A DNA stretch of 35,108 bases from Myxococcota bacterium (GTDB lineage: Bacteria > Myxococcota > XYA12-FULL-58-9 > JALHOP01): assembly GCA_041288095.1 (NCBI GenBank), contig JBGGMJ010000128.1, forward strand, positions 1 to 35,108, written 5' to 3'. The notes beneath the pieces were generated by a model. That model saw nothing but the letters and a program-made list of their open reading frames with translations. It searched no databases and was not told where the DNA came from. The first letter of the stretch is position 1. Every line of letters starts with the position of its first letter. This document shows positions 11,126-16,323 of this stretch, in pieces. Position numbers and translations under genes: made by a program.

Positions 11126-11626
11126 ATGGCCTCCGCGCTCGTAGGGCTCGGCGGCAATCTGGGCGACGTGCTCGCCTGCTTCCGGCGGGCGATCAGCGTC
11201 TTGGCGACGTTGCCGTCGACGCGGGTCGTGAAAGTGGCACGCGCCTATCGCACGCGCGCGCTCATGGCCGACGCGAGCCACGCCCCCGGCCCCGACTACT
11301 GGAACACCGCCGTCGAGCTCGCGACCACGCTCTCACCGCACCAGCTCCTGACCCACCTGCAGGCCATCGAGGCCGACGCCGGCCGAGTCCGCCGCCAACG
11401 CTGGGAAGCGCGGCCGCTCGACCTCGATTTGCTCTACTACGACGATCACGTCATCGACGACGCGCAGCTCACCCTGCCGCATCCTCACGCCATGGCGCGC
11501 CTCTTCGTGGTGGCGCCGCTTGCCGACATCGCGCCGGAGCGCGTCGCGGGCGGGCGCACCTTCAGCGAGCGTGTCGGGGATTTCGACAGCAACGACCTTC
11601 GCGAAATCCGCGACGCCTGGTTCTGA
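11126..11626 (+). CDS. folK: 2-amino-4-hydroxy-6-hydroxymethyldihydropteridine diphosphokinase
   Basis: GLGGNLGD, YWNTAV, LQAIEADAGR-R-QRWEARPLDLDLL, LTLPHP, RLFVVAPL. Confidence 0.94.
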   Translation: MASALVGLGGNLGDVLACFRRAISVLATLPSTRVVKVARAYRTRALMADASHAPGPDYWNTAVELATTLSPHQLLTHLQAIEADAGRVRRQRWEARPLDLDLLYYDDHVIDDAQLTLPHPHAMARLFVVAPLADIAPERVAGGRTFSERVGDFDSNDLREIRDAWF

Positions 11627-11696
11627 GCGCTGCCGGGCTTTCTTCAAAAAACTATTTCGATTTGTTGCGACGGCTCCCATGTCGTCTTCGACGTCG

Positions 11697-11702
11697 TAAA
11701 TT
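11697..11702 (+). promoter_or_regulatory. Putative sigma70 -10 hexamer (TAAATT) for the structured RNA
   Basis: TAAATT lies just 5' of the rod's first stem, with an AT-rich tract at 11638-11666 in an otherwise GC-rich region. No clear -35. Confidence 0.35.
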
Positions 11703-11706
11703 GATC

Positions 11707-11888
11707 ATCGCGGGTCGGGCGTGGAGCTTCGGCCCGCGACTTACACGCGGAGGAGCTTGGGGTTACGCGTCGGCTTGTGGGCACCTCTGGAATTAGCTGG
11801 GGGTTAGTCGAACGTGACGACCGAGCTCCTCCGCCTGTAAGATTTTCCGCCTCTCGCGCCCGCCGCGCGATCGCAGACGATCGTTTTT
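11707..11888 (+). ncRNA. Putative ~180-nt rod-shaped ncRNA (6S RNA-like or novel)
   Basis: Seven nested helices found by eye with an internal bubble (coordinates in findings). Non-Watson-Crick pairs inside the helices are G-U on the + strand. Flanked by a -10-like box and a terminator. Confidence 0.62.
11868..11888 (+). terminator. Rho-independent terminator
   Basis: CGATCG-CAGA-CGATCG hairpin followed by TTTTT. Confidence 0.55.
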
Positions 11889-12025
11889 CCTCGAGAATCT
11901 TTCACTTCACCCGATCGCAAAGGATCGCGATCGCAGATCTGTCGGACCCTCGATCAAGACTCTCCCCACGCTGAATCCTGCCCCGCCGTGATGGCGCGGT
12001 CAGCAGCGCATGGAGGTCTGCGGTC

Positions 12026-12388
12026 ATGTCGAAGAAGGTTGTCCATCTGTCCGATGACGCACACGAGCTCGCCAAGTTGTTCTGCAAAGAGTCGGGCATG
12101 AAGATGAGCGACTGGGTGGCGATGCTGATCAAGCGTGCGGTCGAGCCGCCAGCGCAGGTGCCTGCGCCGCCGCCGGCACCGGTGATGAGCCATCCGGCGA
12201 TTCGTGAGGTGGCGCCACGTTTGCCCGAGCAGCGTCCGGCGAGCTTCGCTACGCCGTCGTTCAATGTGTCGGGGGCGAGCAATCCGTCGCTGCCCAAGAA
12301 GAAGCCCATGCTGCGCGAGCTGTCGTCGGACGAAGACCAGGTTCCCGTCTACGCGCAACCGCCGTTCTGGGCGCGCAAGAGCTCCTGA
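12026..12388 (+). CDS. Small protein with an N-terminal ribbon-helix-helix-like domain and a Pro-rich tail
   Basis: GGAGG RBS at 12012-12016. KKVVHLS (strand), DDAHELAKLFCKESG (helix A), MKMSDWVAMLIKRAV (helix B) fit the RHH pattern; Pro-rich linker; C-terminal YAQPPFW. Confidence 0.65.
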   Translation: MSKKVVHLSDDAHELAKLFCKESGMKMSDWVAMLIKRAVEPPAQVPAPPPAPVMSHPAIREVAPRLPEQRPASFATPSFNVSGASNPSLPKKKPMLRELSSDEDQVPVYAQPPFWARKSS

Positions 12389-12492: not shown

Positions 12493-12576
12493 GCCGCGGT
12501 GGCGGAATCGGTAGACGCTAAGGACTTAAAATCCTTTATCCGCAAGGGTGTCCGGGTTCGAGTCCCGGCCGCGGCA
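12493..12576 (+). tRNA. tRNA-Leu (anticodon TAA), CCA not encoded
   Basis: Acceptor GCCGCGG/CCGCGGC plus discriminator A; D-arm GCGGAATCGGTAGACGC; anticodon arm AAGGA-CTTAAAA-TCCTT; long variable arm; T-arm CCGGG-TTCGAGT-CCCGG. Confidence 0.97.
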
Positions 12577-12680: not shown

Positions 12681-14591
12681 ATGCAAACCGAGCCATCGCC
12701 AGAGATCTTGCGGCTGACTTTCCGCAAGCCCGCCTTCTGGTCCGGGACGTTGCTCCTCACCGTCGCGGTTTGTGCGATCGCGTCCCTGAGCCTCGTCCGC
12801 GGTGACGGACAGGTCAATCTGTTGTGGACGGGCAGTCTCGCGGTGCTCTGCCTCGCGATGGTGTTGGTGCGCGCATTGCGCTTACCGCGTTTCGTGCCGC
12901 CCATCGAGCTCGGAGCCAATCGCTTCGCGATGCCGACGGCCGCTGACTCGCGACGCGCCGTGGAGCTCGATTACAGCGATCTCCGTGCTCTGAGTCTGCG
13001 GCAGCGCGGCTCGCAGCAGATCCTGGTCATCGAGACGACCCGCGGCTTGTTCATGTTCCCGGCCGCGGCCTTCACCGACCCGAACGCCATCGAGCGCTTC
13101 TTCGTGGGCCTACGCGAGCGGCTCCAGACCCTGCCGAACGGCACCGATGTCCTCGACGTGATGGCGCGTCGCGAGGAGCTGATCCGCGGCGTCCTGGCGC
13201 TGCGGCCGACGGTCACCTACGTCATCCTGGGCTCGCTCTTGCTCGGGCTCGCCGCTCAGGTGTTCCTCGGTGCGCTCGTCGACGAGGGCGACATCATCAA
13301 GATCAGCACCCTCGGCGCCAATGTCCCGGAGCTGGTGCGCGCCGGTGAGTGGTGGCGGCTCGTCACCGCGAGCTTTCTGCACGGCAGCTTTTTGCACATT
13401 TTCGTCAACGGTCTGTCGCTCATCGTCGTCGGCCAGATCGTCGAGCGCATCATCGGGCCCTGGCGGCTCGGTATCGTCTACGTCGTGGCGTGCGCCGGCG
13501 GGGCGCTGGCGTCCGCGGTGCTGGGTAATGGCGCGGTGTCGGTGGGCGCCTCGACCGGCATCTTCGGTATTTTCGGCGCGCTCGCGGTCTGCAATTTTCA
13601 CTACCGGCGTGAGCTCGCCTTGGGTTTCAAGCAGCCGTTGGAGCTGTGGGCCTTCAACATCCTGCTCAACCTGCTCCTGCCCTTCATCTTCCCGTTCATC
13701 GATCTCTGGGGACATTTCGGCGGTCTCGTTGCCGGGGCGCTGATGACCTACGTGCTGGTCGCTCCGCACGAGCAGCTCATCTACAACCGGCCGGCGGGTG
13801 GCGTCGTGAAAGCCGCGGGAGTGCTGACCGCCGTCGTCGTGTCCGCCTGCTTGGGCTTCGCGACACGTAGCGCGCTCACGCTCACCGATGAGCGCGTCCT
13901 CGTGCTCGCCGAGCAAAGCACCGACTCGACCTGGATGAACGCCGTTGCCTGGGAAGTGGCGCGGCGCCCGGACGCTTCCGCGGACAACATCACGCGCGCC
14001 ACGCGCGTCGCCAAGCGTGCCCTCGAGCACAGCACGGGCGTTGGTGAAGTTGGCCAGGTGCGCGACACCTATGCGACGCTGCTCTACCGCGCCGGTGCCT
14101 TCGACGAGGCGCTGGACAGCGAAGACAAGGCCTTGCGCGAGGCGTCCGTCTTCGCGGAAGCGATCCAACAGCCCATCGACATCGTTCTCGGTGCACAGCT
14201 CGGGCGCTTCCTCGATGCGCGCTACAAGAAGCAGGGTGTGCGCGCGGTCGGCTTCGATGCCTCGCAGCTCCATGTGAATATCGTCGGGCAGGGCGTGCGT
14301 ATCCAGCTCGACGCGCCGGCCCCCAAGGGGCTGGTTGCTTACGGCTTGCTCAAGCGGGGCAGCGCCCGCGAAGGCATCGTCCGCGTCACGCTCGGGCCCG
14401 ACCGCGCCGCCGAGCGGGAGCACACCATTCCGCTCGGGGCCGCCGTCGTGCGCGGCAGCGATCTCATGCGCAATCCCCAAGGACTCGAGGTCGTGATCGC
14501 GTGGGTGGACGCGAACGACTGTCGCTGCGATGCTTCGTCGTACGAGGTGCGGTTCTGGCCGCACGACACGAGCATCGATGGCTACCCCTAG
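12681..14591 (+). CDS. Multidomain rhomboid intramembrane serine protease, paralog 1
   Basis: GEWWRLVTASFLHGSFLHIFVN, GAS(T)G catalytic Ser, GHFGG catalytic His; N-terminal 2 TM plus PH-like domain; C-terminal TPR-like and beta domains. Confidence 0.88.
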   Translation: MQTEPSPEILRLTFRKPAFWSGTLLLTVAVCAIASLSLVRGDGQVNLLWTGSLAVLCLAMVLVRALRLPRFVPPIELGANRFAMPTAADSRRAVELDYSDLRALSLRQRGSQQILVIETTRGLFMFPAAAFTDPNAIERFFVGLRERLQTLPNGTDVLDVMARREELIRGVLALRPTVTYVILGSLLLGLAAQVFLGALVDEGDIIKISTLGANVPELVRAGEWWRLVTASFLHGSFLHIFVNGLSLIVVGQIVERIIGPWRLGIVYVVACAGGALASAVLGNGAVSVGASTGIFGIFGALAVCNFHYRRELALGFKQPLELWAFNILLNLLLPFIFPFIDLWGHFGGLVAGALMTYVLVAPHEQLIYNRPAGGVVKAAGVLTAVVVSACLGFATRSALTLTDERVLVLAEQSTDSTWMNAVAWEVARRPDASADNITRATRVAKRALEHSTGVGEVGQVRDTYATLLYRAGAFDEALDSEDKALREASVFAEAIQQPIDIVLGAQLGRFLDARYKKQGVRAVGFDASQLHVNIVGQGVRIQLDAPAPKGLVAYGLLKRGSAREGIVRVTLGPDRAAEREHTIPLGAAVVRGSDLMRNPQGLEVVIAWVDANDCRCDASSYEVRFWPHDTSIDGYP

Positions 14592-16323
14592 CTCCCCGAG
14601 CGACAACACGATCATCTTGCCGCTGCGTCGCTCGCGCGCGGGGATTTCGTTTTTCGGGATGGCCGGCGAGAGGGCTCCGCCGCATCAGGTCGAGCTCCAT
14701 GCCGAGTATCTCGTGGTGCCGGCGAGTGACATCAGCGTGCGCCGCGTCGAAGTGCCGCTCGATCAAGTGACCGGCATCCGCGTCGTGCCCGAGCTCACGC
14801 GCTCCCTGCTCACCATCGAGGCGGGTCGCCGGGCTTTCAACCTCGGGCTTGCCGGCAAGGCGACGCTCCAAGCCGCGCGCAGCTTCGTGACCGCGACGCG
14901 TGACCGGATCGGGGCGCAGCCGCACGGTGACCTGACGCTCGAGCGGATTGCGGCGCGCGAAGCCGAGGTCGACGCCCTCGTCGCGCATCGAGCGCGGTTC
15001 ATCTGGCTCATGGTGCCGCTCCTCTTCGCGGCGTATTTCGCGCGGGTCGCGCTCACCTCCGAGCTCTTCGATCTCGATTACTTCGGAGCCAGCGCGCGCG
15101 CCTGGCTCAAGCATGGCGAGCTCTACCGCCTGGTGACGGCGGCCTGGCTGCACGCGAACCTCTGGCACATCGGCGGTAACCTCGTTGCCATCGTCTGGCT
15201 GGGGCGCGCGGTGGAGCGCGCGCTCGGCGTATCGCGGCTGCTCCTCATCATGACGGCGGCGACCCTCGGTAGCTCGCTCGGATCGACGTGGCTTACCTTC
15301 GGTCACACCATCGGCGCCTCGGGCGTCGGCATGGGCCTCGCGGCTGGATTCGCGGTGGTCGCCATCATGTATCGCCGCGAGCTACCCCGGCCGATCGCGC
15401 GGCCGGCGTGGTGGTGGGGCGTATTCATCCTCTTGCTCATGCCATCGCCCGATGGACCCGGCCCGTCGGCGATCGACCACGCGGCGCACGCCGGTGGCGC
15501 GTTTGGCGGAGCGCTCGCGGCCTACCTTTTGTGCATGCGCCGGCCGCTCTCGCGCTTGCGCACGCCAGACCTGCGCTGGCTCGCTAGCCTTACGGTGTTG
15601 CTGCACGTCGCGGCGTTGGCGATCATGAGCTATCGCGTGGCGACCACCGAAGCGCTCCCCGAGATGCAACGGCTGACCGTGCTGGTGCGCGAGAAGCTCC
15701 TCTCCGCCGACGAGGCCAACGCCATCGCCTGGCGCCTCGCCATCAAGAAGGACGTCGAGCCGCCGATGTTGCAGGCCGCCTTGCAGCTCGCGGAGGCGGG
15801 TCTCGTGATCGCGCCCCGCGACATTGGCCTCGCCGACACGGTCGCGACGTTGCATCACCGCACCGGCAGCGACCGTCGCGCCGCGGAGCTCGAGGCCCGT
15901 ACCCTGGACGACGTCGCCGAAGCCTTCGACGCCACGGGCTTTGCTACCCAGCTGGCGCGCTTCCTCGTGGCGGCTCCGCGGCAGCCGACCGGCATCACCA
16001 TCGAAGCGAGCGATCGGCAGGTGCGCGTCGCGTTCGCGGAAGACGCGCTCGGCCTCGCGCAGTCCGGCGTCACCATCTACGCCGTCGCCATGCGGCATGG
16101 CCGCATCGAGGGACTCATTCGCTTGCGGCTCGGCGCGGGTGAGCGCGAACGCTACGTGAAGGTGCCGCCGGCGACCGACAGCATCTGGAACGCCATGAGC
16201 ACGCCGATCGCGCCTGACGCCGACTACGGAATCATGCTGGTGCGTAGTGGCTGCGGCTGCAAAGACGGTTCCTCCATGCTTAATGTCTGGGCGGTGCATC
16301 CCGAGGTTTTGGGATGGCCGTAG
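14578..16323 (+). CDS. Multidomain rhomboid intramembrane serine protease, paralog 2
   Basis: GELYRLVTAAWLHANLWHIGGN, GASG, AHAGG; same accessory domains as paralog 1. ATG 14578 overlaps the paralog 1 stop by 14 bp. Confidence 0.86.
   Translation: MATPSSPSDNTIILPLRRSRAGISFFGMAGERAPPHQVELHAEYLVVPASDISVRRVEVPLDQVTGIRVVPELTRSLLTIEAGRRAFNLGLAGKATLQAARSFVTATRDRIGAQPHGDLTLERIAAREAEVDALVAHRARFIWLMVPLLFAAYFARVALTSELFDLDYFGASARAWLKHGELYRLVTAAWLHANLWHIGGNLVAIVWLGRAVERALGVSRLLLIMTAATLGSSLGSTWLTFGHTIGASGVGMGLAAGFAVVAIMYRRELPRPIARPAWWWGVFILLLMPSPDGPGPSAIDHAAHAGGAFGGALAAYLLCMRRPLSRLRTPDLRWLASLTVLLHVAALAIMSYRVATTEALPEMQRLTVLVREKLLSADEANAIAWRLAIKKDVEPPMLQAALQLAEAGLVIAPRDIGLADTVATLHHRTGSDRRAAELEARTLDDVAEAFDATGFATQLARFLVAAPRQPTGITIEASDRQVRVAFAEDALGLAQSGVTIYAVAMRHGRIEGLIRLRLGAGERERYVKVPPATDSIWNAMSTPIAPDADYGIMLVRSGCGCKDGSSMLNVWAVHPEVLGWP

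Follow-up and report, generated by a model that had tools for sequence, protein, structure and literature searches.

A candidate small RNA family defined by an invariant UGGGCA bulge, upstream of orf120 in an uncultured order of Myxococcota

What kind of structured element is found in the gap of 399 nt that separates a folK-type gene (11126-11626, Pfam HPPK) from the small gene orf120 (12026-12388)? The window analysed here is the whole stretch of 35,108 nucleotides (positions 1 to 35,108 of the forward strand of contig JBGGMJ010000128.1, assembly GCA_041288095.1), and an earlier note on it had read the gap as encoding a rod-shaped RNA, either a divergent second 6S RNA or a new noncoding RNA. 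We compared the locus among four species of the genus (the window's genome together with G001, G002 and G003), in an order set of 22 genomes that includes the window's genome, and in 379 further genomes outside the order. The covariance models included R1, built from the genus hairpin 11740-11841 alone, and R3, built from 13 sequences outside the genus. In its 5.85-Mb, 90%-complete genome (G000) the element is present as a single copy, which rules out a repeat or mobile element. A coding reading was rejected as well: the 65-aa ORF at 11777-11974 has no Pfam match, and a 41-nt insertion falls inside it in G003.

The proposed fold of the region was borne out. All seven nested helices claimed for it were found, each at its coordinates, and for 11707-11871 on the plus strand the minimum free energy (MFE) fold and the centroid are both the claimed nested rod. 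The energy of this fold is -94.2 kcal/mol, compared with -70.6 +/- 4.4 for shuffled sequences (z -5.38), and none of 200 shuffles was as good. The central 102-nt hairpin (11740-11841) reaches -58.4 kcal/mol with z -6.51 on the plus strand and -44.5 kcal/mol with z -6.00 on the minus strand. The plus strand is 14 kcal/mol more stable because seven G-U pairs would be A-C on the minus strand; the pair table thus upholds the observation that all in-helix deviations are G-U on the plus strand. When longer flanks are included (11700-11895), the MFE fold trades both outer helices for a local 5' hairpin. The RNA and its immediate flanks comprise the following features.

11650..11706, plus strand: conserved upstream block, ATTTCGATTTGTTGCGA ... 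GACGnCnTAAATT; 84, 67 and 65% identity to the three other species, with invariant stretches
11707..11723, plus strand: outer helices, 5' strand (ATCGCG 11707-12; CGGGCGTG 11716-23), present in the MFE fold of 11707-11871
11724..11739, plus strand: internal loop (the 'bubble'), 5' side, unpaired or weakly paired in the folds
11740..11841, plus strand: arm A, a long hairpin with 40 base pairs (extended in the genus)
11770..11811, plus strand: apical module, which defines the family (P1, 5' bulge, P2, loop, UU spacer)
11770-75 with 11806-11, plus strand: P1, a helix of the apical module
11776-83, plus strand: 8-nt 5' bulge, UG+UGGGCA, with the invariant UGGGCA at 11778-83
11784-90 with 11797-803, plus strand: P2 of the apical module, with loop AAUUAG (11791-96) and UU spacer (11804-05)
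11842..11854, plus strand: internal loop, 3' side; relatives bear arm B here, the genus does not
11855..11871, plus strand: outer helices, 3' strand (CGCGCCCG 11855-62; CGCGAT 11866-71), in the MFE fold
11867..11888, plus strand: terminator-like hairpin CGATCG/CGATCG with 7 pairs and a loop of 4, then TTTTT, from a terminator scan

Within the genus the element is present in all three other species. Its best-kept part is the arm A hairpin, 94-95% identical in G002 and G001, where the immediate flanks are 39-79% identical; the segment 11707-11739 is poorly conserved (39-70% identity within the genus). Pairing follows the same gradient, with 83% and 71% of cells paired in the two outer helices and 97.6-100% in the inner ones, and the RNAalifold consensus of arm A for the four species retains 40 pairs, two of them with compensatory changes. 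Over the whole element 92.5% of cells are paired versus 91.9% in shuffles, and 130 of 500 shuffles score as high, but this test is without power because the four sequences are near-identical. One outer-helix pair changes on both sides, from C-G to U-A, in the MAFFT register, and in G003 two further double changes preserve the second outer helix once the alignment is shifted by one column by eye. Between hairpin helices 1 and 2, position 11746 faces 11835 as C/C in two species and as U/U in the remaining two; both sides of this non-standard pair have thus changed together. As for gene neighbours, orf120 lies downstream in all four species, and two of the four have dapB, not folK, directly upstream. 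The folK context on which the earlier note had drawn is therefore incidental, the constant neighbour being orf120.

The hairpin tip extends far beyond the genus. When R1 was run against the orf120 loci of other families, the three best matches all lay on the sense strand upstream of orf120: G005 (24.4 bits, E 4.7e-4), G019 (22.5 bits, E 1.5e-3) and G016 (15.6 bits, E 0.09). These three share a tip made of a helix P1, a bulge ending in UGGGCA, a helix P2 and 0-2 nt before P1 closes. The layout of the family as we define it is accordingly P1, a 5' bulge ending in UGGGCA, a P2 hairpin closing with C-G, and 0-2 nt on the 3' side; window positions 11770-11811 fit it. Fourteen of the 22 order genomes have the motif, as do 10 of the 22 metagenome loci that were reached through the orf120 alignment. 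Wherever found it is on the sense strand and upstream of orf120 (14/14 genomes, 10/10 metagenome loci), with a single significant copy in each genome. The bulge lies 248 nt before the orf120 ATG in the window and 224-867 nt before it in other members. The remaining 8 of 22 order genomes showed no motif upstream of orf120, and in them a short gap separates orf120 from the gene before it (folK in several). All 22 members listed have UGGGCA without variation, and the bulge UGGGCAC is invariant across loci of about 41-72% G+C. In the 13 sequences outside the genus, whose alignment was fitted to the model, P1 and P2 covary strongly: 94.4% of cells are paired and 12 of 14 pairs change on both sides; none of 500 shuffles reaches the observed score, and slid controls give 33-54%. 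R3 ranks 11767-11814 first in the window, albeit as a weak match (11.1 bits, E 1.2). The window's membership in the family thus follows from the reciprocal R1 matches, from the invariance of the bulge, and from a layout and position in common with the other members, not from a significant model score.

As far as we searched, the family appears confined to one uncultured order of Myxococcota. Several further candidates were discarded. The R1 match in G010 (26.9 bits) is an unrelated hairpin in a different context, and the R3 matches G003:C219, G007:C126 and G004:C118 are weak and look like chance. A pattern scan of genome contigs returned 32 stretches, among which five are full-length model matches of at least 33.7 bits; those that could be traced are known order genomes, and L065 and the remainder are weak or due to chance. 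The phylum-wide pattern scan matched 150 of 401 genomes, and its reversed control matched too; such matches arise by chance in G+C-rich genomes and are uninformative on distribution. Among sequencing runs, no RNA run was found to contain the stretch. Run X1, with 0.04 of words shared, yielded four short contigs, three of them 90-95% identical to the window and one below 90%; they are probably DNA, without bearing on expression.

In other families the RNA has a richer architecture than in the genus of the window. A closing helix, P0, is followed by arm A (P1, bulge, P2) and often by a second arm, B, giving a three-way junction. P0, which was recognised by inspection of folds alone (duplex-energy z-scores were uninformative), has a different sequence in every lineage, and the outer closing helices of the window's RNA are its probable counterpart. 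Ten of the 22 listed members have in arm B a box, CG[C/T]GUACC (CGCGUACC), 81-93 nt past the bulge, and G017/M097 carry a nearby GUACC in its place. The CGCGUACC box is absent from the four species of the genus, L089 (which matches G001), G005, G016, G019, G020 and M092, and so marks a subtype rather than the family. None of the four species of the genus has a second hairpin either; the 'bubble' (11724-39, 11842-54) stands where relatives have a multi-helix junction. Many members have UGG triloops, both in the P2 loop (GA-UGG-UC) and in the arm-B hairpin loop (CA-UGG-UG). The GUACCC of the arm-B box is partly complementary to the UGGG of the arm-A bulge, and a pseudoknot between UGGG and ACCC(A/G) of the box is possible in many members, but it cannot explain why the bulge is conserved in members that lack the box.

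Known RNA classes offer no home for this element. With the covariance models of Rfam 15, the whole window gives a tRNA and nothing else at gathering score; no cis-regulatory or riboswitch family matches 11500-12100 at E<=10, and 15 relatives' loci searched at E<=1 give nothing but tRNA. The family is thus absent from Rfam 15, in that no Rfam family matches any member tested. A CsrA-type GGA loop was considered and rejected, since the GGA is not conserved and covaries as stem pairs. A limited search of the literature on structured and noncoding RNA of Myxococcota returned nothing on a UGGGCA-bulge RNA. Of the two options in the earlier note, it is the new noncoding RNA that is supported: the element is single copy, conserved in the genus, strand-specific and without an Rfam match, and its apical module belongs to an order-wide motif that covaries strongly.

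The gene context of the relatives gives a hint of what the RNA may do. In 11 of the 12 loci tested, the upstream neighbour is a divergent sigma-54 activator gene (PF00158). Three full-length RNA-linked activators are 404-439 aa long with an AAA+ domain near the N-terminus, and neither a receiver nor an HTH family was detected in these three. PspF is built alike: its AAA+ domain, too, lies close to the N-terminus, and it lacks receiver and sensor domains. In the activators at L146:1324-2643, L147:1144-2367 and L148:1122-2336 (minus strand) about 200 C-terminal residues have no Pfam match, and a conserved 257-259-aa ORF without a family lies downstream of the activator in two of these three loci. 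Of 15 distinct loci, 11 have the motif TGGC(A/C)C-N5-(T/C/G)TG 70-194 nt ahead of the bulge; by our estimate, chance would be expected to produce it in about 0.04 of 285-nt stretches. Judged by the sigma-54 promoter consensus, TGGCAC-N5-TTGC, four of the 11 matches have the canonical GC; most read TTGG, TTGT or TTGA, not TTGC. A run of at least five T follows the bulge at 82-133 nt in 8 of 19 distinct members, in some directly after P0. An activator gene, a sigma-54-type promoter and a U-run form a layout that, by analogy, suggests a stand-alone regulatory sRNA gene.

The genus of the window differs on the first two counts. A sigma-54-type motif was found upstream of the RNA in none of its four species. 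In the window there is no sigma-54 activator gene among the 33 predicted ORFs, 31 of which were scanned against Pfam (the remainder being a 90-aa ORF and a frame of 258 aa that lies antisense to dapB). Nor did the 90%-complete genome give an orthologue-like match to the RNA-linked activator, the best of 32 matches having 46-48% identity over the AAA+ domain only. Sigma-54 activators as such are plentiful in this 5.85-Mb genome, with at least 32 paralogues. The TAAATT said to precede the RNA is indeed there, at 11697-11702; it is -10-like and lies within the conserved block 11650-11706, which is a candidate promoter region of the RNA in the genus. No sigma-70 consensus pair was found upstream of the RNA, and no consistent site in relatives. 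The hairpin plus T5 claimed as its end is likewise present at 11867-11888 and is kept in three of the four species (G003 has no T-run), but as a signal it does not rise above shuffles, with two sites per 1.3 kb compared with a mean of 1.3. It is the probable 3' end of the RNA. The GCGATCGCAGA of this site (11866-11876) is repeated 61 nt further on, at about 11927, and a protein-binding repeat is therefore an alternative to a terminator.

Downstream of the RNA the following features were recognised.

11912..11962, plus strand: conserved box of GATCGC repeats and CUGUCGGACCCUCGAUCAAGAC (11939-60), 100, 98 and 88% identical in the genus
12026..12388, plus strand: orf120, 120 aa, with an RHH-like N-terminus, a proline-rich linker and a KKK...VPVYAQPPFWA tail
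12493..12576, plus strand: tRNA-Leu (anticodon UAA, taken from the printed alignment) with a long variable arm; Rfam tRNA, 60 bits

GATCGC occurs three times in the near-invariant region 11912-11962 plus 11866-11876. In other families TGTCGGACC, with the core CUGUCGGACCCUCGAUCAAGAC, lies about 90 to 140 nt before the orf120 ATG. A separately conserved box, CUGUCGGACC...GAUCAA (11939-60), stands just before orf120, and G004 has a similar one without having the RNA motif. The box at 11912-11962 is probably a control region or 5' UTR of orf120 and not part of the RNA; perhaps it is an operator/promoter through which the RHH-like domain of orf120 exerts autoregulation. In the metagenome locus L093 (520-1100), about 12 tandem copies of a 24-nt unit (GCCGTGCCGGATGCCGGTGCCCATT-like) occupy some 600 nt between the RNA and orf120. 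The protein itself is specific to the order, being present in 21 of 21 other order genomes, with two weak matches among the 379 genomes outside. Its N-terminus is conserved (MSKVVHLSDDAH..AK.FCK..GLKMSDWVA.LI). Searches of Pfam gave no match and of the PDB no useful one; weak RelB/ParD matches (NCBIfam) were obtained for 2 of 20 members, and Atlas provided RHH-like leads. G015 has three orf120 copies. The same tRNA-Leu follows orf120 in L027, L031, L032, L033 and L034. Directly after the tRNA the window has two adjacent genes, 12681-14591 and 14530-16323, for unusually long proteins (636 and 597 aa) with one rhomboid domain each.

Taken as a whole, these observations lead us to favour, with moderate confidence, a discrete and stable sRNA, the genus form of an order-wide family that would be activator-controlled in relatives. 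On this model the plus strand at 11707-11871 would encode a stable RNA of about 165 nt, in which two short outer helices close an internal loop, a 40-bp hairpin rises from the loop, and the hairpin displays near its tip, between P1 and P2, the 8-nt 5' bulge with UGGGCA. In relatives the neighbouring divergent activator (bEBP) would control the sRNA gene through the sigma-54 promoter, as for Pxr; in the genus, the conserved block that ends in TAAATT would be where transcription begins and the hairpin plus T5 where it terminates. The RNA would be its own transcription unit. A conserved partner, either a protein (orf120 is one candidate) or another RNA, may make contact at the bulge, and the gene context points to a regulatory function. 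Several observations count against this sRNA reading. A leader, too, would be consistent with the strict synteny between RNA and orf120; the terminator-like site is weak, lacks a T-run in G003 and overlaps the GATCGC repeat; no recognisable sigma-70 or sigma-54 promoter precedes the window's RNA; and the genus covariation and the R3 score given above are, respectively, no better than shuffles and weak.

The most serious competitor, which we nonetheless regard as unlikely, is that the RNA acts in cis as a 5' leader of orf120, whether as attenuator, riboswitch-like sensor or protein-binding leader, and would decide on read-through into orf120 at the hairpin and U-run. The constant strand and position of the RNA relative to orf120 is what such a leader would produce, in 8 of 19 distinct members the structure is followed by a stem and a U-run, and in the two long-gap pairs compared no conserved coding sequence separates the RNA from orf120. 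Yet the spacing from bulge to ATG is highly variable, tolerating even the roughly 600 nt of tandem repeats; a separately conserved box, found also in a genome without the RNA, stands between the U-run and the ATG; and orf120 does without the RNA in eight genomes. These three observations weaken the leader reading. Moreover, the RNA tracks the activator gene and not orf120 as such, the helix before the U-run is in several members the closing helix of the whole RNA rather than an alternative expression platform, and no known riboswitch family matches. It is also improbable that the genus retains just a decaying remnant of an ancestral sRNA, or a palindrome with a role in the DNA only. Searches there indeed found no activator gene, sigma-54 promoter or arm B, and genus covariation is not significant, but the hairpin is the best-conserved non-coding stretch of the region, its bulge sequence is invariant, and the differences between species mostly preserve pairing through G-U or compensatory changes, and do so on the plus strand only, which is unlike a DNA palindrome or a neutral relic.

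Two readings would place the RNA in contact with a particular protein. A new protein-targeting RNA, with the bulge as docking site for orf120 or sigma-54, has in our view a low probability. It draws on a bulge that is kept even where activator, promoter and second arm were not found, and orf120 is named with its RHH-like N-terminus and PPFW tail; sigma-54 is named because the bulge equals the -24 element TGGCAC plus one extra G. Were this so, the RNA would be a decoy for the sigma-54 machinery, as 6S is for sigma-70. Least probable of all we consider a second, divergent 6S-like RNA that would bind RNA polymerase as a mimic of an open promoter. In its favour, the genus form, and it alone, has a 6S-like shape: its roughly 165 nt form a closing stem, then an internal loop (16 and 13 nt) and a long terminal stem. 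Yet 11500-12100 has no 6S match even at E<=10. A canonical 6S RNA is already encoded on another contig of the same genome, C187, at 65.1 bits against a gathering score of 46.4 bits for RF00013, so the model works on this genome. Of the 22 order genomes, 19 have one canonical copy, and 13 of the 14 with the UGGGCA-bulge RNA are among these. The rod with its central bubble is not conserved among homologues, the loop being in other families a junction with a whole second arm, and what is conserved is the bulge in the terminal stem, not the pairs flanking the loop. The 6S assignment is thus not supported.

What the analysis adds is a well-supported family of structured RNA, in an uncultured order of the Myxococcota, whose helices covary and whose displayed bulge is invariant. 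It also provides a natural comparison: most lineages keep a module of activator, sigma-54 promoter and sRNA, and one genus has been rewired. In that genus those parts were not found and one arm is longer, yet the bulge is unchanged, which points to the functional nucleotides. At the same time, a plausible but wrong 6S call is corrected, and an unstudied, order-specific small protein, orf120, is flagged beside the RNA.

Among known systems, 6S RNA (RF00013) is similar in size, and the genus form likewise has its closing stem, internal loop and long terminal stem. 6S RNA binds the sigma-70 holoenzyme and templates product RNAs. In contrast to it, the window's RNA has relatives that form a three-way junction and are preceded by sigma-54-type promoters, and the conserved nucleotides lie in a bulge of the terminal stem. 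To our knowledge, few sRNAs have been characterised in Myxococcota, Pxr being the best known. As described in PMC5568312, pxr of Myxococcus (Cystobacterineae) adjoins the sigma-54 regulator gene nla19 and stands behind a sigma-54 promoter; as in the relatives described here, a lineage-restricted, multi-stem sRNA of the same phylum thus has a sigma-54 regulator as neighbour and a sigma-54 promoter. Pxr is an RNA of 108 nt with three stem-loops, encoded downstream of nla19 and with an NADH dehydrogenase gene as its other neighbour. In size and layout, the UGGGCA-bulge RNA differs in being about 150-180 nt long, in having a closing helix and in having orf120 as its other neighbour. The activator of the relatives, moreover, is divergent and without a recognisable receiver domain, and in the window neither activator nor sigma-54 promoter was found. 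More distant parallels are the sRNAs transcribed from sigma-54 promoters next to an activator gene, namely Qrr1/LuxO, CrcZ/CbrB and GlmY/GlrR. Qrr1, CrcZ and GlmY act via Hfq-dependent pairing or protein sequestration with known motifs, and no such motif was recognised in the RNA described here. These RNAs are unrelated to it in sequence and structure and come from different phyla, but the relatives of the window's RNA share with them the arrangement of activator, sigma-54 promoter and sRNA.
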